Part shown: positions 4,297 to 59,409 of the stretch, piece by piece | Layout: each line of letters opens with the position of its first letter | Numbering within the stretch: the first letter of the stretch is position 1 | Assembly (NCBI GenBank): GCA_029210625.1 | Contig: JARGFU010000001.1 | Location: 325,806 to 389,805 of the forward strand | Source of the DNA: Deltaproteobacteria bacterium | Lineage (GTDB): Bacteria; Myxococcota; Myxococcia; SLRQ01 | Reading direction: 5' to 3' | Length of the DNA: 64,000 nt | The notes under the pieces: generated by a model | Told to the model about the DNA's origin: nothing | What the model saw: only the letters and a program-made list of their open reading frames with translations | Database searches by the model: none | Position numbers and translations under genes: made by a program

Positions 4297-5658
4297 ATGC
4301 TGCGCTCCACCCTCCTCTACGGAACCCTCGTCCTGCTGTTCCTCCCGCTCTCGGGTTGTGAGGGCTGCGCCGAGCCCCTGGCCCGCTGGGAGCCCGACGC
4401 CGGCCCGGGGGTGCCCGACGGGAGCACCCCGGACGGAGGCCAGAGCGACGGCGGGGGCGGCGACGCCGGGACGAGCGACGGCGGCGGCTCCGATGGGGGC
4501 GGGGGCAGCGACGGCGGCGTGGCCGTCCTCAGCTGCGCCGTCCTCTGCCACGGCGACGAGGGGAACCCGGCGCCGGCCCTCGACCTCGGCGCCGGCAGCG
4601 ATCCGGACCGCAGGGGCGTGGGCGCCCACCGCCAGCACCTCGCCACCGGCACCGACTGGCACCGGGAGGTGCGCTGCGAGGACTGCCACCTCGTCCCCTC
4701 CGCGGTGGGAGACGTCGGCCACATCGACACCCCGCAGCCCGCCGAGCTCACCTGGGGGGCGCTGGCCTCGGCCGACGGCCAGACCCCGGCCTTCGATCAG
4801 GGACAGTGCTCGGTCTACTGCCACGGACCGACCCTCCACCCCGGCGGCACCAACACCGAGCCCTTCTGGACCGCCGTGGGCGCGGGTCAGGCGGACTGCG
4901 GCACCTGCCACGGGCTGCCTCCCTCGGCCCCCCACCCGGCCACCGTGGCCGAGTGCGGTGTCTGTCACCCCACCCTCTCCGCGAGCGACCGCAGCTTCCT
5001 CGAGCCGGAGCGGCACGTCGACGGCGTCCTCGATCTCGGCGCCCTGGGCTGCGCGATCTGCCACGGGGACGGCACCCTGGCCGATCCGCCGGGTGACCTC
5101 GCGGGCAACGTCGACCCGGGCGCGCAGGGCGTCGGCTTCCACCGCTCCCACACCCAGGACACGGCGCTCCACCTCGCCTGGGACTGCGGCACCTGCCACC
5201 CGGCCCGCTGGGCGGACTACCTCGACCCCGGCCACCTCGACGGTGACAACGTGGCCGAGGTCCTCTTCGACGACCCCCAGAGCGGGGGCCTCAACCCGGT
5301 GGCCAGCTACACCCGCGCGACGGCCACCTGCTCGGCGGTCTACTGCCACGGCAACGGCCACTCCCGGAACCGCACCCTGATCTGGAACGCGCCGACCTCG
5401 ACGGCCTGCAACGCCTGCCACCACGACAACACCACCCCCGAGAATCAGATGGACCTCTCGGGCGAGCACTGGAAGCACATCGGCGATCGCAACTACCCCT
5501 GCTCGCGCTGCCACGCGGCGGTGGCCAACCCCGACAAGACGATCAACGATCGCAGCCTCCACGTGGACGGTCAGGTGAGCGTCTCGGAGTCCTCCTGGAA
5601 CCCGGCGGGGCGCGGCTCCTGCAACCCCTCCTGCCACGGCTTCGAGTACTGGAGGTAG
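4297..5658 (+). CDS. lipoprotein multihaem c-type cytochrome-like protein (multiple CxxCH / Cx3-4CH motifs)
   Basis: Signal peptide with LSGC lipobox. At least seven CxxCH motifs (CAVLCH, CEDCH, CGTCH, CGVCH, CAICH, CNACH, CSRCH) plus CSVYCH and CSAVYCH variants. GAGAGG RBS precedes the ATG. Confidence 0.8.
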   Translation: MLRSTLLYGTLVLLFLPLSGCEGCAEPLARWEPDAGPGVPDGSTPDGGQSDGGGGDAGTSDGGGSDGGGGSDGGVAVLSCAVLCHGDEGNPAPALDLGAGSDPDRRGVGAHRQHLATGTDWHREVRCEDCHLVPSAVGDVGHIDTPQPAELTWGALASADGQTPAFDQGQCSVYCHGPTLHPGGTNTEPFWTAVGAGQADCGTCHGLPPSAPHPATVAECGVCHPTLSASDRSFLEPERHVDGVLDLGALGCAICHGDGTLADPPGDLAGNVDPGAQGVGFHRSHTQDTALHLAWDCGTCHPARWADYLDPGHLDGDNVAEVLFDDPQSGGLNPVASYTRATATCSAVYCHGNGHSRNRTLIWNAPTSTACNACHHDNTTPENQMDLSGEHWKHIGDRNYPCSRCHAAVANPDKTINDRSLHVDGQVSVSESSWNPAGRGSCNPSCHGFEYWR

Positions 5659-7931: not shown

Positions 7932-10097
7932 GTGGCTGAAGGCCCGCGCCCCGCAGAGAGCGAGCTGCCCCGGGTGGTCGACTGGACCGAGATCACCCTC
8001 ACCCACCGCTGCAACCAGCGCTGCTTCTTCTGCTACGAGGAGGCCCGGGACAACGCCACCGAGCCCGACCTCGAGCGCGTCAAGGAGCTCCTGCGGGCCA
8101 CCGCCGGCCACGCCGAGCAGGTGGTCCTCTGCGGCAAGGAGATCCTCATGCGGCGCGACGTGCCGCAGATCGTCGCCTACGCCTCCAGCCTCGGCCTGAA
8201 GGCGGTGGTCTTCACGAACGGCCAGGCCCTGGCCCGGGAGGGGGTGGTCGAGGAGCTCGCCGAGGCTGGCTGCGCGGGGGTGGCCGTCTCCTTCCACTTC
8301 CCCGACGCGGAGACCTTCGCCCGCGGCGCGCGGATCAGCCCCAAGGGCTTCGAGCTGATCCTCGCGGGCCTGCGCCGGGTGCGCGACTACAACCTCGCCC
8401 ACCCCGAGCGGCCCCTCCCCATCTCCACCGAGTCCGACGTCTTCGCGCTGAACGTCGGCCGCCTCGAGGAGATGCGCGACACCCTGCGCGAGGCCCTCGA
8501 GGGCGCCCCCTGGCGGATGCGCCTGGCGAGCCTCCTGCCGGCCCGGACCTACGACATCGGCCTGGACCGCGTCCTCGATCCTTTGCCCGCGCGGCGAGAG
8601 GAGATCGCGGCCTTCGTCGAGAGCCAGCCGGAGGGCATCCCCCTGGGCTTCGTGAAGGTGCCCCTCTGCCTCCTGCCCGAGGGGGAGGAGCACCGCTCCC
8701 TCGACGCCCAGTACGTCTACGAGGGCACCCGCCTCACCTTCAACCACGCCGAGGCCGACCGGATCTCCATCGACGAGGCCTCGGCCTCGATCACGCGGGA
8801 CCTCGCGTCGGTGATGCGCCTGCACCCCTACCGGTGGGTCTGCCGCGCCTGCGCGCTGGCCCCCATGTGCCGCTTCGAGCGCGTGCACTGGGATCACCCG
8901 GGCTTCGGCCCCGATCGCGAGCAGCGCCCCACCCCCTATCGCCCGGAGGGCGTCGCCCCGGCGGCCCTCGACGGCCTGCCCCTCCCCACCCGGCGGCGGG
9001 GAGCGGCCGAGGTCCTCGCGCCCCTCGGCGCGAGCACCGACGGGGTGGGGAGGGTCGAGGCCCTGAACACCTTCCTCGGCGGGCTGCGCTATCCGGAGGA
9101 GGAGCTCCTCTCCGCGCTGAAGGAGCTGGACACCGGGTCGATCCGCCTCGTCGACGCCTGGAGCGAGGGCCCGCCGGTGCTGGTCGTGCGCCTGGAGATC
9201 GACGGCGCGCCCCTCGATCTCCACCTCGGCGTGCCCTCCCTGCGCCCGCCCTTCGCCCTGGTCGACTACCTCGACGTGCGGCCCCTGGGCGACGCGCCGC
9301 CCCCGGCGCTCCTCGCGCGGGCCCTGCGCCACCTCGCCACCCTGGTGCCGCCGCCCCCCGAGCGCTGGGCCGAGGACACCTTCTTCGACGATCACCTCGG
9401 GCGCCTCTACGCCGCGCTCTCGCCCCGCCTGGGCGAGGCGCTCTGGCCGGGCCTCGGCGGCCTGGGGCCCTTCGCCAGCGTGGGCCTCTCGGTGGACGAG
9501 GATCGCGGCCTGCACCTCTCCCTCGAGGGCCCGGGCGGAGTGAAGGCCGAGCTCCTCGCCCACGGTGGCGATCGCGCCGGGGCGCCGCCCTCCCTCGGCC
9601 TGGAGGTCGAGGCCGGCGCCGGCGCTGAGGACCTGCGCGCCCTGCTCTCGGCGCTCGGGATCGAGGCCAGCGACCTCTCCGCCTGGCAGGGCGCCGGGGG
9701 CGGCCTCGCCGCCCGGGACGAGGGCGCGGGCTGGCGCGCGCAGGGAGGCGGCGGCCGGGAGGCGCGCGGCGGGGGCGGCGATCCCTCCGGCGCCCTGACC
9801 ATCGAGGTCGCGCCGAAGGAGCGCCCCGAGCCGCGCTACCGCTTCCACGTCGCCCGCTGCCTCCAGGGCCAGTCCTACTTCAAGCGGGTGGGCGACCTGG
9901 GGCTCTGGTACAGCCACGACCACCACGACAAGGTGGCCGAGGTCTGCGCCGGGCCGATCCTCCTGGCCATGGAGGAGCTCGCCGGGACCCCGCCGGGGGC
10001 CGGCACGCTGGAGCGCTGGGCCGAGGGCCTGGAGGCGGCCTCCGTCGCCCGGCGGGTCGGCGGCCGCCTCGACTGGCGGCTGCGCTGGAGCGACTGA
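7932..10097 (+). CDS. radical SAM/SPASM-like enzyme with ~350-aa C-terminal extension (paralog of 55279-56820)
   Basis: CNQRCFFC is a CxxxCxxC motif. FTNG is present. A second CxxCx5C cluster (CRACALAPMC) follows. The C-terminal LSVDE..LHLSLEGPGG motif is shared with the protein encoded at 55279-56820. GTG start lies 4 nt after the upstream stop. Confidence 0.8.
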   Translation: MAEGPRPAESELPRVVDWTEITLTHRCNQRCFFCYEEARDNATEPDLERVKELLRATAGHAEQVVLCGKEILMRRDVPQIVAYASSLGLKAVVFTNGQALAREGVVEELAEAGCAGVAVSFHFPDAETFARGARISPKGFELILAGLRRVRDYNLAHPERPLPISTESDVFALNVGRLEEMRDTLREALEGAPWRMRLASLLPARTYDIGLDRVLDPLPARREEIAAFVESQPEGIPLGFVKVPLCLLPEGEEHRSLDAQYVYEGTRLTFNHAEADRISIDEASASITRDLASVMRLHPYRWVCRACALAPMCRFERVHWDHPGFGPDREQRPTPYRPEGVAPAALDGLPLPTRRRGAAEVLAPLGASTDGVGRVEALNTFLGGLRYPEEELLSALKELDTGSIRLVDAWSEGPPVLVVRLEIDGAPLDLHLGVPSLRPPFALVDYLDVRPLGDAPPPALLARALRHLATLVPPPPERWAEDTFFDDHLGRLYAALSPRLGEALWPGLGGLGPFASVGLSVDEDRGLHLSLEGPGGVKAELLAHGGDRAGAPPSLGLEVEAGAGAEDLRALLSALGIEASDLSAWQGAGGGLAARDEGAGWRAQGGGGREARGGGGDPSGALTIEVAPKERPEPRYRFHVARCLQGQSYFKRVGDLGLWYSHDHHDKVAEVCAGPILLAMEELAGTPPGAGTLERWAEGLEAASVARRVGGRLDWRLRWSD

Positions 10098-10107
10098 GGC
10101 GAGCGCT

Positions 10108-12297
10108 TCAGGCCGGCGAGCCCGGCAGCGCGTAGGGCGCGTGGCGGCTCGCCACCCGGTCGACGGCGCGCAGGAAGCTCTTCACGGTGCGCTGGTGGGC
10201 CTGGCTCTCCAGGGGGGTCTCCTTCACGTAGGAGACCAGGAAGTGCTCGGTGCGGAAGAAGCAGGGCCGCCCGCTGGTCGGGTCGTCGAGCCGGAGCTCG
10301 TAGCGCTGACCCTCGAGGGTGATCGTGAGGGCCACGCTCGCCTCGCCGGTCACCGGGAGGGCCTGGAGCACCTCGAGCCCCGCCACCACCGGGCCGAGCT
10401 TCTCTCGCACCGCCTGCGCCACCCGCTGCAGCACCCGCGCGCGCCGCAGCTCGGCCTGCAGGGCGGGGTCGAGGTCGGCCTCCGGATCCGGATCCCCGGC
10501 GGACGCGGGGTCGGCGGAGGCCTCCTTCGCCTCCTCCCCGGACGCGTCGGTGCGCCAGGCGCGCCGCTCGGCCTCGAGGGCCGCCTCGACCTTCACCCGG
10601 TAGGGCCCCTTCGCCTCCTCGGCCAGCGGCGCGAGCTCGGGCGGGTGGGCCTCGTCGACCCCCGCGGCCTCGCTCGCCGCGCGGACCGCGGCGATGGCCT
10701 CGAGGGCGAAGAGGTCCGGACGATCGAGGGGCAGGCCCTCGGCCTCCCAGCCGCAGATCCTCTCGTAGAGGGCATCCCCATCGAAGAGGGAGTCGGAGTA
10801 CTTGTCCCGCATCGCGGCGGCGCAGAAGCGCACGACCAGGGCGAAGGCCCAGCCGGTGCGCGGATCGAGGAAGCGCCAGGGCAGGAAGGTGTCGAAGGAC
10901 ACGTTGTTCACCGAGGCCTCGTAGAGCAGGGAGAGGTCGGCGAACTGCGTCTGGAGGATGTCCCCCTTCGACTCCGCGAGCTTGGTGATCGGCGAGCCCC
11001 GGTAGAAGAGGATCGGGGTGTAGAGCCAGACCCCCAGGGGCTCGAAGCCGCGCTCGATGGCCCGCTCGATCCCGGTCTCGAACATGTCGAGGGTCGTCCA
11101 GGGCGAGCAGGTGATGTAGCCCCAGGTGGGATCGAACTCGAAGTTGTCGGGGAACTCGGCGGCGAACTCCCGCAGGAAGCGGCTGCCCTCGTCGATCTGC
11201 TGGAGGGTGACGTACTTGTTGAAGAGGATGTTCTCCTCCTCGATGAGGTTCTCGGCCCCCATCCGGAAGAGGAGGACCCCGTGCCCCTTCTCGGCCAGCT
11301 TCGGCAGCGCCTTGCGCAGGGCGGGCTCGACCTGCACCAGCCGGTCGATGCGCGGCTCGAAGCAGAAGGTGGTGGGCCGCAGGGGCAGCGTGCAGACCTG
11401 CTCGGCGAAGCGCTCGAGCTGGGTGAAGAGGCGGATGTCGAGGAGGTCGATGTAGCCCTGGTGGCGGCCGTCCTCGCCGCCCGTCTCCACCAGCCGCCGC
11501 AGCTGCACCATGGCCGCCTCGACCGGATCGGCGTGCATGTCGCTCGTGGGTCCGCGGTACCAGGTGCAGTAGGAGCAGCCGTGATCGTGCTGGCAGTCCG
11601 AGAGATCGAGCCCCTCGAAGTAGGGGTTGTCCTTCACGGTGCGGAAGTGGTCGCAGGTGACGCCGCCGACCAGGGGGAGGTGCGGGGCGTAGGCGCGCGA
11701 GCGCTCGTTCGCCATGATCACGTCGAAGGAGGGCTCGAAGGTCCCCAGGAAGTACTTGCCGAAGTCCGGGTTGGTGGCCGGGTCCTCGCCCATCCACCGC
11801 AGGAGCCAGTCGGTGCGGCTCTGCATCCAGTTGAAGAGGGTGCCGCCGAGCTTCTCGTAGAGCCGCTTGTCCGCGTCGCTCATCCCGAGGGCGTCGAGGT
11901 CCTCGGTGACCATCGACTCGGGGCGCCAGAGGGGCACGACCCCCGGCGGCGCCGAGTGGTCCGAGACGCTGGCCAGCGCGACCTCCCCGGCCTCCCGGAG
12001 GACCTCCAGGGTGGCCTCGGTGACCGGGTGGCTCATCAGGACGTGGGTCGGCTCGAGCTCGCGCAGGTGCCGGCGCAGGGTCTCCAGGTCCTCGGGCGGG
12101 AGGTCGATCAGCTGCAGGACCTCCTTCTCCCCCACCTTCACGATGGAGATCTGGGCGCCGAAGCAGAGCCAGCGGGCCTCCTGGCCGTAGGCCTCGAAGC
12201 CGCCCTTGATCAGGGGGTAGAGCCGGCTGTCGAAGACCCACCGCTCGTGGGTCACGAACTCCAGCATGAGGAGCCGGCGCTCCCCAGTGCCGGGCAT
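10108..12297 (-). CDS. B12-binding-like N-domain + putative radical-SAM-like core with atypical Cx5Cx2C triad
   Basis: The N-terminus resembles a cobalamin-binding domain. A cysteine triad CQHDHGCSYC is present. ATG at 12297 is preceded by an AAGGAAAGG RBS. Convergent with the rSAM gene at 7932. Confidence 0.65.
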   Translation of the reverse strand: MPGTGERRLLMLEFVTHERWVFDSRLYPLIKGGFEAYGQEARWLCFGAQISIVKVGEKEVLQLIDLPPEDLETLRRHLRELEPTHVLMSHPVTEATLEVLREAGEVALASVSDHSAPPGVVPLWRPESMVTEDLDALGMSDADKRLYEKLGGTLFNWMQSRTDWLLRWMGEDPATNPDFGKYFLGTFEPSFDVIMANERSRAYAPHLPLVGGVTCDHFRTVKDNPYFEGLDLSDCQHDHGCSYCTWYRGPTSDMHADPVEAAMVQLRRLVETGGEDGRHQGYIDLLDIRLFTQLERFAEQVCTLPLRPTTFCFEPRIDRLVQVEPALRKALPKLAEKGHGVLLFRMGAENLIEEENILFNKYVTLQQIDEGSRFLREFAAEFPDNFEFDPTWGYITCSPWTTLDMFETGIERAIERGFEPLGVWLYTPILFYRGSPITKLAESKGDILQTQFADLSLLYEASVNNVSFDTFLPWRFLDPRTGWAFALVVRFCAAAMRDKYSDSLFDGDALYERICGWEAEGLPLDRPDLFALEAIAAVRAASEAAGVDEAHPPELAPLAEEAKGPYRVKVEAALEAERRAWRTDASGEEAKEASADPASAGDPDPEADLDPALQAELRRARVLQRVAQAVREKLGPVVAGLEVLQALPVTGEASVALTITLEGQRYELRLDDPTSGRPCFFRTEHFLVSYVKETPLESQAHQRTVKSFLRAVDRVASRHAPYALPGSPA

Positions 12298-23145: not shown

Positions 23146-23652
23146 ATGAGCACGAAGCAGCGGGCCACCCTCACCGTCCAGGAGCGCGACTACACCGTCG
23201 AGGAGGTCGGCGAGGTCATCCGCACCGCCTCCTCCCTGGTGAGGGTGGGGGACGCGGCCCTGGCCACCCCCCCGAAGGACACCCTGGGCTTCGGCGAGCT
23301 CACCGAGCTGGCCAGGGAGCTGGGCATCCCCCAGGAGCAGCTGCTGGCCGCCATCCCCGAGGCCGACGCGCGCCGGGCGCGGGCCCTGAAGCGCACCAAG
23401 CGGAAGATGCGCTTCTGGAAGCACCTCCTCACCTACATCCCGGTGGTGGGCGGCCTCATGGCGATCGACTACTTCGTGACCCTCTTCGGGGCGCCGGGCA
23501 TCGCCGTGGGCACCGTGGTCTTCGCGGGCCTCTGGGGCATCGGCCTGGTGATGCACGGCCTGCGCACCTACCTCACCGGCCCCGAGGGCGCCCTGCACCG
23601 CTCGGTCTACGCCGGCGAGCTCGAGGCGGAGAAGAGGAAGAAGCTGACCTAG
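23146..23652 (+). CDS. small two-TM membrane protein (hypothetical)
   Basis: Two hydrophobic helices (IPVVGGLMAIDYFVTLF / VVFAGLWGIGLVMHGL). Divergent from the HDAC-family gene. Confidence 0.5.
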   Translation: MSTKQRATLTVQERDYTVEEVGEVIRTASSLVRVGDAALATPPKDTLGFGELTELARELGIPQEQLLAAIPEADARRARALKRTKRKMRFWKHLLTYIPVVGGLMAIDYFVTLFGAPGIAVGTVVFAGLWGIGLVMHGLRTYLTGPEGALHRSVYAGELEAEKRKKLT

Positions 23653-25076
23653 GTGCCCTTGCTCTTCACGAACTCCGTGAAGAGCCCGGCGATCCGCTCG
23701 GCGTCCGCGGTGCAGTCGTTGATGCCGATGCCGTAGAGGTGGTTGCCGGTGAGGAAGAGGCCCGGGTGGGCTCCGGCGAGCCGCTCGAGGACCTTCCCCA
23801 TGCTGACGAGGTGGCCCACCGGGTACTGGGGGACGGCCTGGGGCCAGCGGAAGATCCGCTGGTGGCTGGGCGGCACCCAGCGCATCCCCATGGTGAGCTC
23901 CAGCTCGGAGCGCACCAGGGCCAGCAGCTCGTCGTCCGGCAGCGCCGCCAGCTCGGGGGCCCGGGCGCCGCCGACCATCACCCGCATCAGCACGTAGCCC
24001 TTGGGGGCGCGGTGGCCGGGGTAGATCGAGGAGGTCCAGAGGCAGCCGAGGATCTTGCGCTTCTCTCGCCCGGGGATGAGGTAGCCGAAGCCGCGCAGAT
24101 CGTGGTGGATGGCGTCCTTGGGGAAGCCCAGCCCGACCACGGTCATCGAGGCGTAGGGGGTCCCGCGCAGCAGGCCGGCGCTCTCGGCGTCGACGCCCTC
24201 GAGGAGGGAGGCGGCCGCCGGCGCCGGGGTGGCGAGGACGACCACGTCGGCTTCCAGGGTCTCGCCGGGCTCACCGACCAGGTGGACCTTCCAGCCGGCG
24301 CCGTTCCTCGCCAGGGCCTCGACGGTCACGCCGGTGCGCAGGTCACCCTCGATGGCCTCGGCGATCCCGTCGATGAGCTGGGTGAGGCCGCCGGCCATGG
24401 AGGTGAGGTGCCCCCCGGGGCCCGCGGCGCCGCCGCTGGACTGCTGCACCTCGCCCCGCTTGGCGGCGAGGCGCCGCTCCTTCGCCCGGGCGCGCATCCC
24501 CTTGATGAGGCCGCCGTGCTCGAGCTCCAGCTTCTTCACCGCGGGGAAGGCCGCGGCCACCGAGAGGCGCTCGGGGTCACCGGCGAAGATCCCGGTGACG
24601 AAGGGATCGAGGAGGCGCTCGACGGCGTGGTTCCCGAGGCGGCGCCGGCCGAACTCGGCCAGGGTCTCGTCCTCGGGGCCGACCTTCTGGAAGGGCTCGA
24701 GGAGGATCCGCAGGCGCCCGCCGAGGGGCAGCACCGAGGAGGTCATGAAGCCCGGGGGCGAGGTCGGCAGCGCCTGCAGCCTCCCGTCGAGGTAGAGCAG
24801 GCGCGTCTTGGAGGCCTCGTCCGCCGGGAGGGTCTTGTCCTCCAGGCCGAGGTCCTTCACCAGGCGCACCGTGCCCGGCTTCGAGTCGAGGTAGCCGTTG
24901 GGGCCGGTCTCGACCACCCAGCCCTCGTGGCGGTCGGAGCGGATCTTCCCGCCGAGGTGAGCGTCGCGCTCCAGGAGGGTGATCTCGGGCTTCACGCCGG
25001 CGGCGCGCGCCGCCTCCTGGACCCGGTAGGCCGAGGCGAGACCCGAGATCCCGCCGCCGATGATGACGATCTTCAT
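23649..25076 (-). CDS. hemY: protoporphyrinogen/coproporphyrinogen III oxidase (HemY family)
   Basis: MKIVIIGGGISGLASAY FAD motif. Full-length PPOX architecture. ATGA overlap with hemE. Confidence 0.9.
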   Translation of the reverse strand: MKIVIIGGGISGLASAYRVQEAARAAGVKPEITLLERDAHLGGKIRSDRHEGWVVETGPNGYLDSKPGTVRLVKDLGLEDKTLPADEASKTRLLYLDGRLQALPTSPPGFMTSSVLPLGGRLRILLEPFQKVGPEDETLAEFGRRRLGNHAVERLLDPFVTGIFAGDPERLSVAAAFPAVKKLELEHGGLIKGMRARAKERRLAAKRGEVQQSSGGAAGPGGHLTSMAGGLTQLIDGIAEAIEGDLRTGVTVEALARNGAGWKVHLVGEPGETLEADVVVLATPAPAAASLLEGVDAESAGLLRGTPYASMTVVGLGFPKDAIHHDLRGFGYLIPGREKRKILGCLWTSSIYPGHRAPKGYVLMRVMVGGARAPELAALPDDELLALVRSELELTMGMRWVPPSHQRIFRWPQAVPQYPVGHLVSMGKVLERLAGAHPGLFLTGNHLYGIGINDCTADAERIAGLFTEFVKSKGT

Positions 25077-26119
25077 CGCCGGGACAGTCTATGCACTGCC
25101 TCGACGAGGGCCACGGCGTGCTCGGGCTCGGTGTACTGCGTGATCCCGTGGCCGAGGTTGAAGATGTGGCCCGGCGCGGTGCCGGCGGCGTCGAGGATGC
25201 CCTTCACCTTCTCCTCGATCTTGGGGATCGGGGCGTAGAGGGTCATCGGGTCGAGGTTGCCCTGCACGGCGGCCCGGCCGGCGATCCGGCGGCGCGCGTC
25301 GTCGAGGGGGATCCGCCAGTCGATGCCGAGGACGTCGGCGCCGGACTCGAGCATGACCTCGATCAGCGAGGCCGACTGCCCCACGAAGAAGATGACCGGG
25401 ATGTCCTCGCAGGCCAGCTGGTCGATGATCCGCTGGACGTAGGGCAGCTCGTACTCGCGGAAGTCGGCCGGCGAGAGGGCGCCGCCCCAGGAGTCGAAGA
25501 TCTGCACCGCCTGGGCGCCCGCCTCGATCTGGGCGTTGAGGTAGAGCGCGGTGGTGTCGGCGATCTTCTCCATCATCAGGCGGTAGGTCGCCGGCTCGGC
25601 GTGGATCATCCGCTTGAGGTTGAGGAAGTCCTTCGAGCCGCCGCCCTCGACCATGTAGGTGGCCAGGGTGAAGGGCGCGCCGGCGAAGCCGATCAGGGGC
25701 ACCCGCCCGGCGAGGCGCTCGCGGATCTTGCGGATCGCCTCCATCACGTAGCCCATCGTCTCGACGGGGTCCGGGACCACCAGCGCCTCGGCGGCCGCGA
25801 GGGAGCGCACCGGCGGGGTGATCTTCGGCGGCCCGCCCTCGAAGGAGAGCTCGAGGCCCATCGCCTCGCAGGGCACGAGGATGTCGCAGAAGAGGATGGC
25901 CGCGTCGACGCCGAGGCGGTCGATCGGCTGCACGGTGACCTCGGCCGCGAGGTCCGGGGTCTTGCACAGCTCGATGAAGCTCACCTTCTCGCGGATCGCC
26001 CGGTACTCGGGCAGATAGCGGCCCGCCTGGCGCATGATCCAGATGGGGGTGAACTCGGTGGGGAGGCCAAAAGCGGCGCGGAGGAAGGGATGTGCGGGCT
26101 CGGTGACTGGGTCTCTCAT
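25073..26119 (-). CDS. hemE: uroporphyrinogen decarboxylase
   Basis: TPIWIMRQAGRYLPEY signature. Start MRDPVTEP aligns with the E. coli HemE N-terminus. Confidence 0.9.
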   Translation of the reverse strand: MRDPVTEPAHPFLRAAFGLPTEFTPIWIMRQAGRYLPEYRAIREKVSFIELCKTPDLAAEVTVQPIDRLGVDAAILFCDILVPCEAMGLELSFEGGPPKITPPVRSLAAAEALVVPDPVETMGYVMEAIRKIRERLAGRVPLIGFAGAPFTLATYMVEGGGSKDFLNLKRMIHAEPATYRLMMEKIADTTALYLNAQIEAGAQAVQIFDSWGGALSPADFREYELPYVQRIIDQLACEDIPVIFFVGQSASLIEVMLESGADVLGIDWRIPLDDARRRIAGRAAVQGNLDPMTLYAPIPKIEEKVKGILDAAGTAPGHIFNLGHGITQYTEPEHAVALVEAVHRLSRR

Positions 26120-26226
26120 CGGGGGGAGGGATAGCACAGCCGGACGCCACCGGGGAGGCACATGGGGCACGAGATCGGCGTCGCCGCCTTGGGCTATGAT
26201 GGGCTCTCGCGAGAGAGGGAGAGGGG

Positions 26227-28221
26227 ATGTCCGACGAACGCCGGCCCAGCCCGGAAGAGGTCACCGACCCGGATCGCACGGATCCGAGGGCGGAGCGGCC
26301 CGAGCGCCGCCCGGAGGCCACCGACCCCGGGAGCCCGGCGCCCGCCCGCTCCACCGATCCGACCCCGGGAGACGCCGAGCCCACCCGGATGGAGGCTCCT
26401 CCCACCTCCCGGCCCCCAAAGGAGGCCCCCTCCACCGACCCCACCCCGGCCGACGCCGAGCCCACCCGGATGGAGGCTCCCCCCACGTCCCGGCCCCCGA
26501 AGGAGGCCCCCTCCTCCGACCCCACCCCGGCGAACATCGAGCCCACCCGCCTGGAGCCTCCCCCCACTTCTCGCCCTTCGAAGGAGGCCCCCTCCACCGA
26601 CCCCACCCCGGCGAACATCGAGCCCACCCGCCTGGAGGCTCCTCCCACCTCCCGGCCCCCGAAGGAGGCTCCCTCCACCGACCCCACCCCGGCGAACATC
26701 GAGCCCACCCGCCTGGAGGCACCTCCCACGTCTCGCGCCCCGAAGGCCGCGGCGTCCACCGACCCCACCCCGGCCGACGCCGAGCCCACCTTCCGGGGCG
26801 TGCCCCCCGCTGCCCGGCCGGCGACCGGGGACACCGCCGTGCCCTCGCTGGCGCAGCTGCGCGAGAGCCGCCGCCAGCGGCGCCCCTCGGACCGCGTCAT
26901 CATCGCCCTGGCGGCCCTCGGCGGCGTCGCCGTGCTCCTCGCCGCCTTCGCCCTCACCCGCCGGGAGACCGTCGATCCCCACGCCGAGCTGCAGGAGCGC
27001 CACGCCCGGGCCGAGCAGATCTACGTCTCGGGGATGGAGGCCTTCCGCGCCGAGGAGTGGGAGCGGGCGGAGGCGGCCTTCGCCGAGGCGGTCTCCCTCC
27101 ACCCCCGGCACGAGAAGGCCAAGGACTACCTCGACGCCTCCCGGCGTGAGCGCGAGGCAGCGCTGGCCCTCGCCGACGCCGCGCGGCTCCTCGAGCAGGG
27201 AGACCTCGCTGCGGCGACGACCGCGCTCGCCCGGGTGCGGCGCGACTCGATCCTCGCCGGACAGGCCGAGGAGCTGCAGAAGCGCATCGACGGCGTGAAG
27301 CTCGCCGGCGTGCTCGACGTCTTCCACGAGGCGCTGGCGGGCACCGATCCGATGGCGGTGCTCTCGGCGCTCGAGGCGGCCGCCGGGCAGCCGGCCCTCG
27401 AGCGGGCCCGTCGCGAGCTCACCGCCCTCGAGGCCATCTCGCTGGACGCCGCCGCCGAGCAGCTCACCCTGGCCCGGGAGCGCGCGCCCGACGCCGCGGA
27501 CGTGCGGGTCGCCCAGCGCCAGCTCGAGGCGCGGCGGGAGGCGATCACGACGGCCATCAGCCTGAAGAAGGTCGAGATCAGAGAGCTGGAGGGTGACGCG
27601 GAGGACGCCGAGGCCCGGCGGATCAAGGAGGCGATCGAGCGCACCCTGCGCCCGGCGCGCGCGGCCTTCGAGCGGGGCGCCCTCGGCGAGGCCGGCCGGA
27701 TCCTCAAGGCCGGCCCCGCGCGGGCCGACGATCTGCCGGAGGTGCGCCGGGCGGTGAAGGCCGCGCGGGACGCCCTCCCCCGCTACCAGCGCTCCATCAC
27801 CGCCGCCCAGCGCTCGGAGAAGCAGCGCGACCTCTCGAGCGCCGCCACCCACTACACCCAGGCCCACCAGGCGGCCCGGAAGATCGACGCCGGGGGCACC
27901 CCCACCCAGACCGCCCTCGAGGGCGCGGTGCGGACCCGCTACCTCGCCGGCCGCGCGGCCTTCAACGCGGAGAAGTGGCCCGAGGCCTTTGCCCAGTGGT
28001 CCCAGGGCGGGCGCCTCGACCCCTCGGACGCCAACCTCTCCCGCGGGCTGAAGGACCTGGACGCCAAGGCCAAGGAGCTCTACCTGCAGGCCTACGTGAA
28101 CAAGCCCTCGGTGCCCGAGCGAGCGCGCCGGGGCTTCCAGCTGGTGCTCAAGATGACCCCGCCGGGGAGCGAGTGGAACCGCAAGTCGCGGGAGCAGCTC
28201 GCCGAGCTGGGAGGACCCTGA
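26227..28221 (+). CDS. membrane-anchored protein with six N-terminal 27-aa tandem repeats, one TM helix and a TPR/coiled-coil-like periplasmic domain
   Basis: Repeats of the form STDPTPA(D/N)(A/I)EPTR(M/L)EAPPTSRPPKEAP. TM segment VIIALAALGGVAVLLAAFAL. GAGGGG RBS. Confidence 0.7.
   Translation: MSDERRPSPEEVTDPDRTDPRAERPERRPEATDPGSPAPARSTDPTPGDAEPTRMEAPPTSRPPKEAPSTDPTPADAEPTRMEAPPTSRPPKEAPSSDPTPANIEPTRLEPPPTSRPSKEAPSTDPTPANIEPTRLEAPPTSRPPKEAPSTDPTPANIEPTRLEAPPTSRAPKAAASTDPTPADAEPTFRGVPPAARPATGDTAVPSLAQLRESRRQRRPSDRVIIALAALGGVAVLLAAFALTRRETVDPHAELQERHARAEQIYVSGMEAFRAEEWERAEAAFAEAVSLHPRHEKAKDYLDASRREREAALALADAARLLEQGDLAAATTALARVRRDSILAGQAEELQKRIDGVKLAGVLDVFHEALAGTDPMAVLSALEAAAGQPALERARRELTALEAISLDAAAEQLTLARERAPDAADVRVAQRQLEARREAITTAISLKKVEIRELEGDAEDAEARRIKEAIERTLRPARAAFERGALGEAGRILKAGPARADDLPEVRRAVKAARDALPRYQRSITAAQRSEKQRDLSSAATHYTQAHQAARKIDAGGTPTQTALEGAVRTRYLAGRAAFNAEKWPEAFAQWSQGGRLDPSDANLSRGLKDLDAKAKELYLQAYVNKPSVPERARRGFQLVLKMTPPGSEWNRKSREQLAELGGP
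26350..26800 (+). repeat. 81-nt in-frame tandem repeat (~5.5 copies) inside the CDS at 26227-28221
   Basis: Near-identical nucleotide units encode the 27-aa repeat. The antisense ORF 26261-26722 reflects the same periodicity. Confidence 0.8.
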
Positions 28222-38788: not shown

Positions 38789-39238
38789 GTGCGCGTCTCC
38801 CTCCTCCTCGCGCTGCTGCTCGCGCCGCTCCTCGCCGGCTGCCCGCCCATCCAGCCCTGCACCGATTGCCTGGAGGTGGCCGGGGAGTACCTCATCCGGG
38901 CCCAGCCCATCGACGGGCTCTCGGGGGGCGGACCGGACAACCCCTGCGGCGCCGTCGCCTTCCCCGGCGTGAACGATCGCCTGCTGATCACCCAGGCCGG
39001 CTCCCAGCTCACGGCCAGCGGCTGGATGGAGCTCGACGGCACCCTCTACGAGGACGACAGCCTGATCCTGGGACCCGAGCACTACCTCCAGACCGCCCAG
39101 GGCGAGGTGCTCCTCAGCCTCACCGGGCTCTTCGTCCCGGCCCGGGACGGCTGGGTGGTGCAGGGTCAGGTCGTCTTCGACATCCCGATGCAGGCCTGCA
39201 CCACCAGCACGCCGCTGGAGCTGGTCCAGCAGCCCTAG
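38789..39238 (+). CDS. small lipoprotein, paralog B (tandem duplicate of 38319-38777)
   Basis: GTG start 11 nt after the upstream stop. Signal LLLALLLAPLLAGC. Motifs are conserved with paralog A. Confidence 0.6.
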   Translation: MRVSLLLALLLAPLLAGCPPIQPCTDCLEVAGEYLIRAQPIDGLSGGGPDNPCGAVAFPGVNDRLLITQAGSQLTASGWMELDGTLYEDDSLILGPEHYLQTAQGEVLLSLTGLFVPARDGWVVQGQVVFDIPMQACTTSTPLELVQQP

Positions 39239-39273
39239 CGCGAGGCGGGTCGGCTGATCCATATTGCTCCGCT

Positions 39274-41256
39274 ATGGCCAACCGACGACCCACCGAGATC
39301 CAGCTCTCCGGCCGCATCCTCTACCTGACCGGCGATCCCTCGCTCGTCAGGCAGCAGCTCGAGTCCGGCGAAACCCTCCCCTGGGACCCCGCGCGGCCCC
39401 GGATGGACAACATCTCCACCGACGAGATCACCCCGGGGTGGGTCTGCTTCTACTACGACGAGACCCTGGGCGAGTACGTCTACGTGGGGATGCGCGAGAA
39501 GGCGGTCCAGAAGGATCAGGTGAAGTCCTTCGGCGCCGACGTCGTCGTCTCCGGCCTCTCCAAGGGCTGCGGCTCCTCCCGCGAGACCGCCCCCTACGCC
39601 GAGGTCTGGGCAGGCGTAAAGCTGGTGATCGCCGAGACCATCGAGAAGATCTACGGGCAGAACTCGGTGAACGTCGGCCTGCTCACCAGCACCGACTTCG
39701 GGCTCGTCCCCCGCATCCTCGCCGGCGAGAAGATCCCGCTCTCCGAGTTCACCAGGGGGATGGATCCGATCTCGACGGCCATCGTCGAGCACGGCGGCCT
39801 CTTCCCCTACAACGAGGCGCGCCTCGCCGGTGAGATCGCCCCGCCGAAGATCGAGACCGCCGCCCGGCCGATGACGATGGTCGAGAAGATCGTCGCCCGG
39901 CACGCCATCGCCGACGCCAAGACCGGCGCGCTCGGCATCCCCGCGGTGAAGCCCGGTGACGCCCTCTTCGTGCGCACCGACGTGCGCTTCTCCCACGAGT
40001 ACGTCACCCCGATGGCGGCCTCCCTCTTCCTGCAGTCCCTCGGCGAGGACGCGAGGGTCAGCGAGCCCGAGAGCGTCTTCGCCTTCCGGGATCACCTCAC
40101 CTTCCTGGGCCAGGTCATGCCCGAGGAGCAGCGGAAGATGGGCCTGCTCGAGCGGGCCGACGGCCTGGCGACGACCCAGCAGGGCTTCGCCGAGAAGCAG
40201 GGCATCAAGCTCTACGGTGAGGTGGAGGGCGGCGGCTCCGAGGCGATCTGCCACAACGCGATCCTCGAGGACATCGGCCTGCCCGGGCAGATCATCCTGG
40301 GCACCGACTCCCACACCTGCACCGCCGGCGCGTTCGGCGCCTTCGCGTTCGGGGTCGGGAGCACCGACATGGCCAACGCCTGGTACACCCGCGACGTCCG
40401 GGTGAAGGTGCCCGAGACCATCAAGGTGCACCTGAAGGGCCAGCGGAGGAAGGGCGTCACCGCCAAGGACGTGATCCTCCTGGTGATGGCCCAGGACTAC
40501 ATCAAGAGCGGCAAGGGCATCGGCCAGGTGCTCGAGTTCTGCGGCCCCGGCCTCGCCGACCTCGGCATGGACGAGCGCGCCACCCTCACCAACATGGCCG
40601 TGGAGGCCGGCGGGTTCACCGGCATCTGCGAGGCCGACGAGAAGACCCTGGAGTGGCTGCAGTGGATCCGCCCGGGCGTCGACCTCGAGGCCGCCCGCGC
40701 CGGCATCGTCGCCTCCGACGAGGACGCCTCCTACGTGCACACCGTCGAGTTGGACCTCGGCGACATCGAGCCGATGGTCGCCACCCCCGGCGATCCCCGC
40801 AACGGCATCCCGCTCTCCACCCTCGACGCCGTCGAGGGCGGCCCGGTGAAGATCGACATCGCCTACGGCGGCTCCTGCACCGGCGGGAAGATGGAGGACA
40901 TGGACCTCTACGCCTCGGTGCTCAAGGCCGCCCTGGCCGAAGGGAAGAAGGTCGCCGAGGGCGTGGACCTCTTCATCCAGTTCGGCTCCCAGAAGATCCG
41001 CAAGTACGCCGAGGAGAAGGGCTACATCGAGGTCTTCGAGGAGGCCGGCGCGCAGCTGATCAACCCCAGCTGCGGCGCCTGCATCCGGGCGGGCCCGGGC
41101 GTCTCCTACAGCGAGGAGACGGTGAGCGTCTCGGCGATCAACCGGAACTTCCCGGGCCGCAGCGGCCCCGGCAAGGTCTACCTGGCCTCGCCGCTCGTCG
41201 TCGCCGCCAGCGCCATCGCCGGCCACATCGTCTCTCCCGACGCACTCCTGGCCTAG
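39274..41256 (+). CDS. aconitase-superfamily hydro-lyase, fused swivel (LeuD-like) + catalytic (LeuC-like) domains
   Basis: N-terminal DNISTDEITPG swivel motif, then MTMVEKIVARHA..., GTDSHTCTAGAFGAFAFGVGSTD and CGACIRAGPG, consistent with Fe-S cluster ligands. Confidence 0.8.
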   Translation: MANRRPTEIQLSGRILYLTGDPSLVRQQLESGETLPWDPARPRMDNISTDEITPGWVCFYYDETLGEYVYVGMREKAVQKDQVKSFGADVVVSGLSKGCGSSRETAPYAEVWAGVKLVIAETIEKIYGQNSVNVGLLTSTDFGLVPRILAGEKIPLSEFTRGMDPISTAIVEHGGLFPYNEARLAGEIAPPKIETAARPMTMVEKIVARHAIADAKTGALGIPAVKPGDALFVRTDVRFSHEYVTPMAASLFLQSLGEDARVSEPESVFAFRDHLTFLGQVMPEEQRKMGLLERADGLATTQQGFAEKQGIKLYGEVEGGGSEAICHNAILEDIGLPGQIILGTDSHTCTAGAFGAFAFGVGSTDMANAWYTRDVRVKVPETIKVHLKGQRRKGVTAKDVILLVMAQDYIKSGKGIGQVLEFCGPGLADLGMDERATLTNMAVEAGGFTGICEADEKTLEWLQWIRPGVDLEAARAGIVASDEDASYVHTVELDLGDIEPMVATPGDPRNGIPLSTLDAVEGGPVKIDIAYGGSCTGGKMEDMDLYASVLKAALAEGKKVAEGVDLFIQFGSQKIRKYAEEKGYIEVFEEAGAQLINPSCGACIRAGPGVSYSEETVSVSAINRNFPGRSGPGKVYLASPLVVAASAIAGHIVSPDALLA

Positions 41257-41319
41257 CTCCACCGCAGCTCCTCGGGGCACCTCGCTGGCCCGTCGCCACG
41301 GCGAGGAGTAGATTGGCCC

Positions 41320-43212
41320 TTGTTGAGCGCGCCGGGAAAAAGACGGCTGGTCTTCGTCCAGTTCTCGCCTACCACCGAGGGGAGCCGGCGCTCGCCGCTC
41401 TTCTTCTCCACGGCGATCTACCAGCTCAAGGCCTACCTGGAGAGCGATCCGGTCCTGAAGGAGCGCTACGAGCTGGAGATCCGCCTCATCGAGGAGCCGG
41501 GGCAGAGCCGCTTCAAGGACTGCGACGCCTACTACATCGACACCCTGCGCACGCTGCTGGCCGGGGACCCCGACGTGCTGGCCTTCAGCCTCTACGTCTG
41601 GAACCTCGACAGCGCCCTGAACCTCGCCCGGGCGCTGCGGCCCATGCGCCCGGACCGCCTCCTCCTCGCCGGGGGTCCCGAGATCTACGAGCGGCCCCGC
41701 TTCGTCGAGAGCTACCCGGAGTTCGACCTGCTCCTCGAGGGTGACGGCGAGCTCCCCCTGCAGCGCACCCTCCACGCCCTCCTCGAGCGCGAGCCCCCCC
41801 TCGAGGGCATCGAGGGCCTCTCCTTCCGGGACGCGAGGGGCGAGTGGGTCCACAACCGCTCCAACCTCCAGACCCTCGACCTCGACGAGATCCCCAACTT
41901 CTACGCCGAGCACCCCGAGCAGCTCTACGGTCAGGCCAACTACATGACCACCCGGGGCTGCTCCTTCGCCTGCACCTACTGCCTCTGGGCCAAGCAGCGC
42001 TTCCGCGCCCGCTCTCCGGCGACGATCCTCGCCGAGCTGGAGACCATCCTCTCGGCCGAGGCCGTCGACAGCCTCTCGATCTGGGACTACGACCTCCTCG
42101 AGGTCTTCGAGAACGAGCCGGAGCTGGGCACCACCTTCATCGAGTTCTTCGAGCGGCACCGCCGCGCCCCCCTCCACTTCTTCTCCACCGCGGAGCACCT
42201 GGCCGCGGCGCCGGTCGAGCTCCTCACCGAGCGCCTCAACGTCGGCCGGATCAGCGTCGGCGTGCAGTCGTGCAACCCCGAGACCCTCCTGGCGGTGAAC
42301 CGGCCCTGGGCGGCCGATCCCCTGGAGCACCTGGCCCGGGTGGACGACCACCTCCGGACGCTGATCTCGATCCAGCTCGTCTACCCGATGCCGGCGGAGA
42401 CCCCGGAGACCTTCCTCGAGCTGGTGCGCTCCCTGACCCGCCTGGGCTACTTCCGGATCCAGATCTTCCCGCTGATGGTCCTGCGGGGGACCTCGATGTC
42501 GAAGCACGCCGACCGCTGGGGTCTCGAGCACCTCTCCGCCCCGCCCTACTACTGCTACCGGACCCCCAGCGCGGCGCCGGACTCGGTGTGGACGGTCACC
42601 GGGCTCGCCCGGGTCCTCGAGATCATCGAGACCCGCTCCGCTCCCCTCGACCCCGGCGAGCGGCTCCTGCGCTGGTACCGCGCCCACCCGGGGCTGGTGG
42701 ACGACTTCATCGCCCGCATCGCCGCCGGGGACGAACCCGAGGCGATCGCCCTCGACACCCTGCGCGAGGCCCTCCCCGAGCTGGCCCCCTCCGAGCCGGT
42801 GCCCGAGTACGAGCCGGAGCCGGAGCCTGAACCCGAACCCGAACCCGAGCCGGAGCCCGAACCGGAGCCCGAGCCGGAGCCGGAGCTCGAGTCCCCGGAC
42901 ACGGGCCGACCTCCCCCGGTGGACTGGAACGACATCGGGGACGAGGTCATGCGCCTGCTGGCCGAGACCTGGCCGCCGGGGGTCGAGGTGAGCTTCGGCG
43001 AGGAGCACATCGCGCTGACCCTCTATCCCGAGCGCGGCCCGGCCCAGCTCGTCCTGCGCCGCTCGGCCTCGGGCGAGCCCTACTACCGCGCCACCTCCCG
43101 CTACGAGCTCTCCTACGGCGGCGCCTTCCCGGACCTCGGGATCGTCGACCGGATCGCCGAGCTCCTCGAGGGCATCGCGCCCCCCCGGCAGGGCGAAGAG
43201 GAGGGAGCGTGA
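41320..43212 (+). CDS. B12-binding-domain radical SAM enzyme (class B-like) with C-terminal (EP)n low-complexity tail
   Basis: N-terminal cobalamin-binding-like domain. TTRGCSFACTYCLW is a CxxxCxxC motif. TTG start with a GAGGAG RBS. Confidence 0.8.
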   Translation: MLSAPGKRRLVFVQFSPTTEGSRRSPLFFSTAIYQLKAYLESDPVLKERYELEIRLIEEPGQSRFKDCDAYYIDTLRTLLAGDPDVLAFSLYVWNLDSALNLARALRPMRPDRLLLAGGPEIYERPRFVESYPEFDLLLEGDGELPLQRTLHALLEREPPLEGIEGLSFRDARGEWVHNRSNLQTLDLDEIPNFYAEHPEQLYGQANYMTTRGCSFACTYCLWAKQRFRARSPATILAELETILSAEAVDSLSIWDYDLLEVFENEPELGTTFIEFFERHRRAPLHFFSTAEHLAAAPVELLTERLNVGRISVGVQSCNPETLLAVNRPWAADPLEHLARVDDHLRTLISIQLVYPMPAETPETFLELVRSLTRLGYFRIQIFPLMVLRGTSMSKHADRWGLEHLSAPPYYCYRTPSAAPDSVWTVTGLARVLEIIETRSAPLDPGERLLRWYRAHPGLVDDFIARIAAGDEPEAIALDTLREALPELAPSEPVPEYEPEPEPEPEPEPEPEPEPEPEPEPELESPDTGRPPPVDWNDIGDEVMRLLAETWPPGVEVSFGEEHIALTLYPERGPAQLVLRRSASGEPYYRATSRYELSYGGAFPDLGIVDRIAELLEGIAPPRQGEEEGA

Positions 43213-44196: not shown

Positions 44197-44241
44197 TCGG
44201 ACCCCTCGAGGGCCGCTCACCCCGGAAGCGACGGTAGCTCG

Positions 44242-51233: not shown

Positions 51234-51257
51234 GGAATCTTGATTTCTGGTTTAGTA
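51234..51257. promoter_or_regulatory. right arm of the inverted-repeat pair (GGGAATCTTGATTTCTGGTTTAGT)
   Basis: See 51088. The pair brackets ~120 bp of the divergent promoter region between nflH-like and the 51302 gene. Confidence 0.5.
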
Positions 51258-51301
51258 TGGGGCCCCGGAGGCCCGGTGCCCAGCAGATCACCCTCCATTC
51301 G

Positions 51302-59064: not shown

Positions 59065-59156
59065 ACGACCTGGCAGTATAGGCCGCCGTCGGCAGGATGC
59101 GGTTGCAGGACGACCCGAAAGCCTGTCATCTTCGGCTGGAGAGAGGACCCAACCCC

Positions 59157-59402: not shown

Positions 59403-59409
59403 CGCGGCG

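Follow-up and report, generated by a model that had tools for sequence, protein, structure and literature searches.

Meheust et al. 2020 (ISME J / bioRxiv 10.1101/765248) described a new nitrogenase paralogue, Group VI, accompanied by a large set of genes for radical S-adenosylmethionine (SAM) proteins, in genomes that include 14 from Myxococcales. Group VI systems were reported from aquatic Myxococcales and from Elusimicrobia (Meheust et al. 2020, bioRxiv 10.1101/765248), and their function and substrate are still unknown according to a July 2026 review (PMC13474568, section 7). The stretch of DNA analysed here, referred to as the window, comprises 64,000 nucleotides of a Deltaproteobacteria bacterium of the Myxococcota (contig JARGFU010000001.1, positions 325,806 to 389,805). 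It resembles the Group VI systems in possessing a divergent NifH-like gene with a Walker A motif and both cluster cysteines, very divergent NifD/K-like genes, and several radical SAM genes nearby, including types with a B12 domain. The nitrogenase-like genes are designated Nfl, and five further proteins are designated A (7932-10097), B (55279-56820), C (10108-12297), D (56830-59064), and E (59410-59907).

Genomic context, sequence comparison, and predicted structures incline us, by a modest degree, towards a reading in which A and C form one complex, a C-terminal module docks the radical SAM enzymes of the pathway, and the substrate is a non-peptide molecule also acted on by an ATP-driven Nfl reductase. 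The association of nitrogenase-like and radical SAM genes is already published, and the A-type family, the C-like superfamily, their fusion, and the module are absent from Pfam 2025 and NCBIfam 2026. Meheust et al. 2020 lists radical SAM genes by Pfam domain only and does not list the A-type family, the C-like superfamily, A-C fusions, or the tail module. None of these four came up in literature searches on nitrogenase-like systems and radical SAM enzymes, in which the module and the CX25CX2C motif were not themselves searched for.

Radical SAM core and auxiliary cysteines of A and B

The two proteins and the cysteine motifs of A are located as follows.

7932-10097, plus strand: protein A, 721 amino acids (aa), radical SAM (PF04055, E=1.5e-16) with a four-cysteine auxiliary motif and three C-terminal modules
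8010-8033, plus strand: CX3CX2C cluster motif of A (C27, C31, C34), invariant in 29/29 family members
8667-8870, plus strand: auxiliary cysteines of A (C246, C304-x2-C307-x5-C313), invariant in the A-family alignment
55279-56820, minus strand: protein B, 513 aa, radical SAM (PF04055, E=1.5e-21) with the same four auxiliary cysteine positions and two C-terminal modules

The window has a G+C content of 72.7%, and its coding genes are recognisable by a G+C content at third codon positions (GC3) of at least 0.9; that of A is 0.97. PF04055 is the sole Pfam match in either protein, scoring 61.5 bits in A and 77.8 bits in B at a gathering cutoff of 29.5 bits. With this match above the gathering score and a CX3CX2C motif, A and B are both members of the radical SAM superfamily. 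The motifs that a preliminary description had read in them (CN(Q/N)RC(F/V)FC, FTNG, CxxCx5C, and a C-terminal LSVD...LSLEGP motif) are all present. In A, they are RCNQRCFFC at aa 26-34, FTNG at aa 94-97, C304-x2-C307-x5-C313, and LSVDEDRGLHLSLEGPGG at aa 517-535. The equivalents in B are MCNNRCVFC at aa 14-22, FTNG at aa 87-90, C279-x2-C282-x5-C288, and LSVDGQRAELSLEGPEG at aa 453-471.

No NCBIfam model matches A or B at its cutoff, and the best sub-threshold matches are MoaA, AhbD, and HxsC. The top matches of B, HxsC4 and HxsC, score far under cutoff, as does its match to 'N_Twi_rSAM'. For A, a search of 5.8 billion proteins yielded 42 homologues, each from an uncultured member of the Myxococcales, Deltaproteobacteria, or Bradymonadales. 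Homologues of B number more than 658 at ~50% identity and come from Polyangia such as Minicystis, Polyangium, and Byssovorax. An exact-sequence look-up returned no record identical to A or to B.

The cores of A and B share 31% identity over 139 aa (pairwise BLASTP, E=2e-10). Profiles were built for the A family (A1, 29 sequences) and the B family (A2, 26 sequences) and compared by hhalign, with reversed profiles as controls. The full-length profiles align with 99% probability and are colinear through the auxiliary cysteines and the C-terminal motif. C246 and C304/C307/C313 of A are paired with C232 and C279/C282/C288 of B. At the level of sequence profiles, the relation of A to B, though remote, extends past the generic radical SAM core, as had been proposed.

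The cysteine pattern after the barrel places A and B near the twitch and SPASM enzymes, such as MoaA, BtrN, HxsC, anSME, and PqqE. They share with these enzymes the CX3CX2C core, a CX2CX5C tri-cysteine motif, and one upstream cysteine. However, a SPASM domain is defined by a seven-cysteine signature (CX9-15GX4C ... CX2CX5CX3C ... C, for two auxiliary clusters) and an HMM (hidden Markov model) match to PF13186 or TIGR04085. A and B lack the full signature and its CX3C continuation, conserving only the upstream cysteine and CX2CX5C, and PF13186 matches none of the 29 A members and none of the 26 B members at E<=1. The label 'SPASM', applied to both proteins in the preliminary description, is therefore inaccurate. 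A twitch domain is a truncated SPASM-like beta-hairpin/helix extension with exactly one auxiliary [4Fe-4S] site. The four auxiliary cysteines conserved in both families are enough for one extra cluster, and the motif is compatible with a partial SPASM or twitch-like domain with one predicted cluster. The invariant cysteines of the B family are C15/C19/C22, C155, C232, and C279-x2-C282-x5-C288. Unlike MoaA, BtrN, HxsC, anSME, and PqqE, A and B are extended after the auxiliary motif by repeated modules that form a 200-390-aa tail.

Protein C has a predicted radical SAM fold with an expanded cluster loop

Protein C, annotated by NCBI as a hypothetical protein of 729 aa, is encoded convergently with A across a gap of 10 bp.

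10108-12297, minus strand: protein C, partner of A without a Pfam match, predicted radical SAM fold; 729 aa from the ATG at 12297, with an upstream GTG at 12324 as a possible start
11566-11655, minus strand: invariant triad C215-x25-C241-x2-C244 of C, in the loop after barrel strand 1

Searches of Pfam, NCBIfam, and PDB sequences returned no match for C, even with its family profile; PF04055 appears in only 2 of 28 family members, at E ~0.08. The fold was recognised by structure-based search only. AlphaFold2 models were made for C and for residues 335-721 of A. The C model (predicted local distance difference test, pLDDT, 87.2) starts with a Rossmann-like domain at the N terminus, continues through a partial TIM barrel and a helical region, and ends in the module. 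Modelled C thus has the partial TIM barrel of a radical SAM fold, and lacks the CX3CX2C motif and the PF04055 match.

The preliminary description had assigned to C an atypical Cx5Cx2C triad. The first cysteine of that triad, C235, exists in the window protein but is missing in 8 of 28 family members and present in just 28 of 130 superfamily representatives. C215, C241, and C244 are invariant in all 126 aligned representatives, where the first two are separated by 23-29 residues, with a mode of 25. The conserved motif is therefore CX~25CX2C. It occupies the loop after barrel strand 1, the usual site of CX3CX2C. Among known motifs with a longer first spacing, the closest is CX14CX2C of Burkholderia QueE. 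C is inferred to bind an Fe-S cluster and SAM.

An exhaustive profile search among 1.84 billion entries returned 733 cluster representatives of the C superfamily, 622 of them at E<=1e-10. By sequence, the superfamily is small and sharply bounded, with no bleed into mainstream radical SAM families. Several radical SAM enzymes, including RimO/MiaB, AprD4, TsrM, CysS, and OxsB, also carry an N-terminal Rossmann or cobalamin-binding-like domain. C is 9-14% identical to them and matches neither PF04055 nor PF02310. It differs further in its cluster motif (CX23-29CX2C versus CX3CX2C) and in its extra helical region and C-terminal module. Conserved N-terminal cysteines are lacking, unlike in the methylthiotransferases, and no conserved DxHxxG motif was seen in the alignment.

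The superfamily also includes giant proteins of 1000-1900 aa without a Pfam match that contain at least two C-like units (P0206, P0207, P0208, P0270, which is L003 2115-7886, and L001 4712-7732).

A and C are paired and sometimes fused

The neighbourhoods of A homologues were compared at 13 loci, among 166 loci fetched in total; the flanks often end at contig ends. In 11 of the 13, the A homologue has a C-family or C-like gene no more than 3 kb away, and 11 contigs are common to the match lists of A and C. The two genes are convergent in the window, L007, L008, and L165, and co-directional in L011, L012, and L166.

In three proteins (P0023, P0027, and P0028, ~1220 aa), C and A are fused, with residues corresponding to ~16-550 of C at the N terminus followed by A. 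The fusions are 49% identical to C and 47% identical to A. Fusions of a C-like protein with a canonical radical SAM domain, which may precede or follow it, also occur in P0242, P0267, and P0290. The conserved adjacency and fusion of A and C constitute strong genomic evidence for a two-component enzyme. The C-A fusions keep the modules of A and lack the module of C, and this loss upon fusion suggests that the module of C normally tethers C to A.

No upstream neighbour of A is conserved across the A loci. In the window, A and C are surrounded by lipoproteins, a glycosyltransferase fragment, and a multihaem cytochrome. The last is a c-type cytochrome at 4297-5658 (plus strand), 2.3 kb upstream of A, with Geobacter-type CxxxxCH...CxxCH motifs, and is not conserved in other A loci.

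A repeated C-terminal module links A, B, and C

The modules are distributed over four proteins of the window. Residue ranges of strands and helices refer to the AlphaFold2 models, in model numbering for A.

9084-9356, plus strand: module 1 of A, aa 385-475, beta3-beta-alpha (strands 70-117, helix 124-134)
9444-9671, plus strand: module 2 of A, aa 505-580, with the LSVD...LHLSLEGPGG motif (strands 180-187, 193-198, 204-210)
9774-10094, plus strand: module 3 of A, aa 615-721 (strands 287-326, helices 333-372)
55576-55869, minus strand: module 1 of B, aa 318-415
55282-55503, minus strand: module 2 of B, aa 440-513, containing LSVDGQRAELSLEGPEG
10114-10455, minus strand: C-terminal module of C, aa 615-728 (helix 611-638, strands 641-690, helix 699-719)
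41320-43212, plus strand: radical SAM protein with a B12-binding domain (PF02310 and PF04055), matched by the C-module HMM at ~42997-43131

Each module spans ~100 aa with a beta3-beta-alpha arrangement, and the copies are in tandem, three in A and two in B. The model of A residues 335-721 (pLDDT 87.7) displays three strand-strand-strand-(strand)-helix repeats, and the LSVD...LHLSLEGPGG motif forms the first beta-hairpin of module 2. The C model displays the same order of helix, three strands, strand, and helix at residues 611-719. The number of copies in the A family varies from one to three, as modules 1+2+3, 1+2, or 1+3; module 3 is missing, for example, in P0038 and P0033. In the B family, the pattern GxRAE..F.GP.GE...WL of module 2 is conserved throughout.

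Module-by-module comparison with hhalign connects all three proteins. The C-terminal 125 residues of C align with module 1 of A at P=2.5e-6 and a probability of 89%, and the C module aligns with module 3 of A at P=4.1e-6 and with module 1 of B at P=2.9e-5. The direct links between A and B are weaker, at P=1.6e-4 for the two first modules and P=3.5e-4 for the two second modules. Every reversed control yields P>=0.004. When the cores are removed, residues 392-575 of A and 329-507 of B align colinearly over 172 columns at P=1.3e-3, with reversed controls at P=0.01-0.02.

The module HMMs were searched against 1771 six-frame open reading frames (ORFs) from the window and the A loci, including hundreds of spurious high-GC frames. 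They recover the C-termini of every C-like paralogue. Cross-family matches are found for window B (E=1e-3 to 3e-3, of which E=1.1e-3 with the HMM of A module 2), window A (E=1e-2), window C (E=4e-3), and few others. The HMM of the C module additionally matches the B12-domain protein at 41320-43212 with E=3.7e-5 (aa 581-625 of the stop-to-stop ORF). D carries no tail module.

The similarity of the A and B tails could alternatively be a by-product of high-GC composition, with strands rich in Ala, Gly, Leu, Arg, and Pro, so that only the radical SAM core is homologous. The LSVD...LSLEGP.G motif by itself gives only E=0.022 between A and B (pairwise BLASTP high-scoring segment pair), its columns are poorly conserved inside the A family, and the hhalign probability of the tails alone is just 18%. 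Moreover, when a plain HMM of the B tail was searched against A-family tails, real matches were enriched near the top, and none scored above the best shuffled or C-family decoys. The homology between the A and B tails is thus remote and rests on profile-profile comparison and predicted structure. Compositional bias is nevertheless an improbable explanation. The alignment is colinear over both modules, the reversed profiles perform clearly worse, the cross-family HMM matches fall at the right positions among the 1771 ORFs, and the predicted secondary structure agrees between the A and C models. The decisive evidence comes from the C module, an unplanned control to which both families link independently and more strongly (P ~1e-5 to 1e-6). 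By profile comparison and modelling, the shared tail is real. It is built from repeats of a ~100-aa module that also occurs outside A and B.

The module matched nothing in Pfam, NCBIfam, or the PDB. A Foldseek search of the PDB with the model of the A tail gave no match at E<=1e-3, and the statement of the preliminary description that the tail is not assignable to a known family is therefore correct. The module resembles KA1 and the AMPK alpha C-terminal domains in fold only (Z <7, identity 8-21%, no detectable sequence relationship).

Stop-to-stop ORFs of 173-283 aa in other Myxococcota loci match the HMM of A module 2 at E=2e-4 to 7e-3 (L024 11944-12477, L025 2130-2648, L026 14231-14791, and L040 6273-7121). 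Those of L024 and L026 adjoin C-like cores of ~545 aa. Judged from these sequences, the module may also occur as a stand-alone protein.

A and C in the context of nitrogenase-like genes

The nitrogenase-like operon of the window lies on the minus strand between 46.7 and 51.0 kb.

50154-51017, minus strand: NifH-like ATPase, NflH (PF00142, E=3.4e-65)
46702-50147, minus strand: two NifD/K-like genes, 48048-50147 (699 aa; PF00148, E=6.7e-13) and 46702-48051 (449 aa; PF00148, E=1.3e-39), overlapping by 4 nt

NflH keeps the Walker A sequence GKGGIGKST and both cluster cysteines (CAGR, VCGGF). Its NifD/K-like partners are highly divergent and barely recognisable, the best PDB match having only E=4.9e-7. 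This combination matches that of Group VI-type systems. The larger NifD/K-like protein (48048-50147) also has an N-terminal extension of ~290 aa without a family match before its Oxidored_nitro domain. Over only ~190 aa, NflH is 42-53% identical to the NifH-like genes found at Elusimicrobia loci and beside A/C homologues. Its identity to Azotobacter NifH is 35%, an approximate value.

The Nfl genes of the window are accompanied by multiple radical SAM genes, namely A, B, C, D, and the B12-radical SAM gene 41320-43212, and the same pattern is seen in L003 and L166. In L003, Nfl genes, one NifH-like and four NifD/K-like, stand on either side of a C-A fusion, which is also flanked by further radical SAM genes. 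In L166, NflH-NflD-NflK adjoin, in divergent orientation, an operon that comprises an A homologue and four C-like genes. L007 and L010 likewise have Nfl genes within 7 kb. In the window, the Nfl operon is convergent with the operon that holds the module-bearing B12-radical SAM gene.

We propose that A and C would form a two-component radical SAM unit. A would be a canonical radical SAM enzyme with one extra four-cysteine iron-sulfur site, and C a divergent protein of Rossmann domain and radical SAM barrel with its cluster loop expanded to CX~25CX2C. The unit would belong to the radical SAM suite that accompanies NflH/NflDK reductases of Group VI type in aquatic Myxococcota. The module may be a docking or assembly domain that would keep the radical SAM enzymes belonging to one pathway assembled, either with each other or on a common partner or substrate carrier. 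The docking idea is based on three traits of the module: its presence in enzymes of different classes within the same clusters, its variable copy number, and its loss from C upon fusion. The product of the pathway might be a modified cofactor or metabolite that is then reduced by the Nfl reductase.

Several observations weigh against this proposal. In the window, A and C are 36 kb away from the Nfl operon, and Nfl genes are visible in only 5 of the 13 A loci within the available sequence. The placement of the window NflH in the Group VI clade could not be confirmed from pairwise scores. C-like proteins and the module are absent from the sampled Elusimicrobia and archaeal loci; they may have been added in Myxococcota specifically, or have nothing to do with the function of Nfl. 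On account of this absence, the notion that every Group VI cluster contains them was dropped. The module homology between A and B is weak, the B-tail HMM having scored no higher than decoys. Finally, C, with no Pfam radical SAM signal and no obvious GGE motif, could be a non-catalytic scaffold.

Some of these observations would also be expected if A and C were self-contained, acting for example in lipid, cell-surface, or secondary-metabolite modification, and their proximity to Nfl genes reflected a clustering of anaerobic Fe-S enzymes. Eight of the 13 A loci have no Nfl gene in the available flanks (L001, L006, L008, L009, L011, L012, L015, and L165), the genes around A and C in the window are unrelated, and the Elusimicrobia Nfl loci are devoid of C-like genes. 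However, many of the flanks end at contig ends, and against such independence stand the fusion enclosed by Nfl genes in L003, the divergent arrangement of L166, and a module on the B12-radical SAM gene beside the window Nfl operon. We consider it unlikely.

The proposed docking of A and C to a common pathway can be extended into a bolder form. The module would wire the A type, the CX25CX2C C-like class, and the B12 type into one machine with a Group VI-type reductase making a cofactor or metabolite in anaerobic Myxococcota, and the C-like proteins would be a new catalytic radical SAM class with a 25-residue insertion in the cluster loop. This form is doubtful.

The conserved and sometimes fused pair of A and C provides a handle on Group VI-type systems, though the pair does not reveal the chemistry itself. 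The module is a signature that marks which radical SAM proteins belong together, and its HMM can serve as a marker for genome mining. The C-like superfamily adds ~730 clusters of radical-SAM-fold proteins that are missed by current domain databases. If the module is an assembly domain, it would be a rare case of modular scaffolding among radical SAM enzymes.

The operon convergent with the Nfl genes (38866-46763, plus strand) encodes an aconitase-family protein with its C-terminal domain first, the B12-radical SAM protein, a peptidase-U32-family protein, a SAM methyltransferase, and a fusion of 3-deoxy-D-arabino-heptulosonate 7-phosphate synthase and chorismate mutase. A chorismate synthase gene is located 15 kb away at 61576-62688 (minus strand). 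U32 proteins include prephenate-dependent, O2-independent hydroxylases. The gene set resembles a cluster for anaerobic biosynthesis drawing on an intermediate of the shikimate pathway. At 23649-26260 (minus strand), a uroporphyrinogen decarboxylase gene (URO-D, E=1.7e-131) is situated beside a gene of the flavin amine-oxidase family, of HemY/protoporphyrinogen-oxidase type. Both are tetrapyrrole genes, which may serve ordinary haem synthesis or may bear on the tetrapyrrole hypothesis put forward for Group VI systems. Between B and NflH, 51257-52579 (plus strand) encodes a protein of Asp-rich repeats with a weak match of MtsC type, which is not conserved beside A or B homologues.

The neighbourhood of B

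B lies 9 bp from D, the upstream gene, in the operon E-D-B.

56830-59064, minus strand: protein D, 744 aa, fusion of radical SAM/SPASM, PqqD-like, and HprK-related P-loop kinase domains (PF04055 E=3e-22, SPASM E=1.5e-4, PqqD E=1.8e-3)
59410-59907, minus strand: protein E, PqqD family, candidate recognition element for a ribosomally synthesised and post-translationally modified peptide (RiPP) (PF05402, E=1e-10)
59157-59402, plus strand: candidate small ORF, 81 aa, with a Cys/Gly/Pro-rich core and 6 Cys (GC3 0.91; GGAGAGAGG 11-20 nt upstream of its TTG)
59234-59413, minus strand: alternative small ORF, 59 aa, GPQ-rich, without Cys, its GTG start overlapping the stop codon of E (GC3 0.92)

The C-terminal part of D resembles TIGR04352 (HprK_rel_A) with E=1.4e-9, under the cutoff. 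The closest described arrangements are the HPr-rel-A (TIGR04352) and SynChlorMet ScmC-F cassettes, in which an HprK-related kinase and PqqD accompany paired radical SAM/SPASM genes. D combines radical SAM/SPASM, PqqD-like, and HprK-related domains, and as in those cassettes there is a separate PqqD protein, E, followed by a second radical SAM gene, B. The window differs from them in the fusion of the domains in one protein and in its scores, which are 37 bits versus a cutoff of 200 for TIGR04352 and 72 bits versus 400 for ScmF. No relatives of the arrangement were found, and the 144 pattern matches obtained for D in a metagenome scan include none that is a relative. D and E are a separate peptide-maturase-like unit.

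The preliminary description regarded the peptide substrate at 55-59 kb as evident. A DNA repeat in 59070-59420 gives CGP when read on one strand, GPQ when read on the opposite one, and the third codon positions of the two small ORFs coincide, so that GC3 cannot choose between them. GGAGAGAGG is a Shine-Dalgarno-like sequence ahead of the plus-strand ORF, and the minus-strand ORF fits the operon strand of E-D-B. Neither ORF has a homologue in any of the 166 fetched loci; a CGP-repeat search returned the window ORF only, and no family match was found for the 81-aa ORF. The Cys-rich peptide is a candidate, not an evident substrate. With respect to a RiPP system, a candidate recognition element (E) and a SPASM maturase (D) are present, the strand of the precursor is ambiguous, and the cluster was found nowhere else in the searched loci.

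B-family neighbourhoods were compared at 42 loci of at least 8 kb each. None contains homologues of D, E, the peptide, or Nfl genes, and the pairing of B with D is therefore local to the genome of the window. About 18 of the 42 instead have methyltransferase and other radical SAM neighbours. In many Polyangia (for example L004 4475-8923 and L005 4905-8951), the B homologue is divergent from a group of genes for a methyltransferase, sometimes fused to a radical SAM domain, a radical SAM protein of 577 aa, two small ORFs (47-107 aa), and a radical SAM protein of 406 aa. A sigma-54 FHA activator is also nearby. For the B family, the Polyangia context is a different and better-conserved candidate peptide-maturation setting.

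These comparisons bear on the view that A+C and B+D of the window are related systems for RiPP maturation, each acting on a small Cys-rich peptide and using the tail as a peptide-binding domain. On the B side, the view is favoured by the SPASM and PqqD-like domains of D, the PqqD protein E, a D tail resembling HprK-related kinases found with PqqD proteins, a plausible 81-aa Cys-rich ORF between D and E, and B itself 9 bp downstream of D; B homologues, too, are often near other radical SAM genes and small ORFs (~18 of 42 loci). The A side does not match it. The search for a small Cys-rich ORF near A and C, which the preliminary description had suggested, found that only non-coding frames or parts of known genes reach at least 4 Cys per 40 aa, and neither a conserved small ORF nor a RiPP recognition element was found at the A/C loci. 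A has no conserved upstream neighbour, and A and C co-localise with Nfl genes. Each of A and B does adjoin a second gene of radical SAM type, as had been described, C being of this type by its modelled fold. Yet the pairs are not parallel. C, with its Rossmann domain, barrel, and CX25CX2C motif, is unrelated to D, with its SPASM, PqqD-like, and HprK-like domains, and the order of B, D, E, and peptide recurs in 0 of 42 B loci. Of the two systems envisaged, what stands is the distant relation of A and B with their homologous tail modules and the conserved pairing of A with C; their parallel organisation does not. Two RiPP systems of this kind are accordingly given a low probability.

In the reading preferred here, with A and C as a radical SAM unit tied to the Nfl reductase, B would be a widespread Polyangia enzyme of like architecture that in the window is co-transcribed by happenstance with an unrelated RiPP-type unit of D, E, and a small ORF.

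Two further genes border the B operon. Directly downstream of B, 53019-55181 (minus strand) encodes a lipoprotein-like, extremely Cys-rich protein of 720 aa without a family match, which is not conserved beside A or B homologues. Directly upstream of the E-D-B operon is a PilZ-domain gene (59963-60325, minus strand). Two PilZ-domain genes also lie directly upstream of the A homologue in L165 (8052-9987). The PilZ genes at these two sites may reflect regulation linked to cyclic di-GMP.

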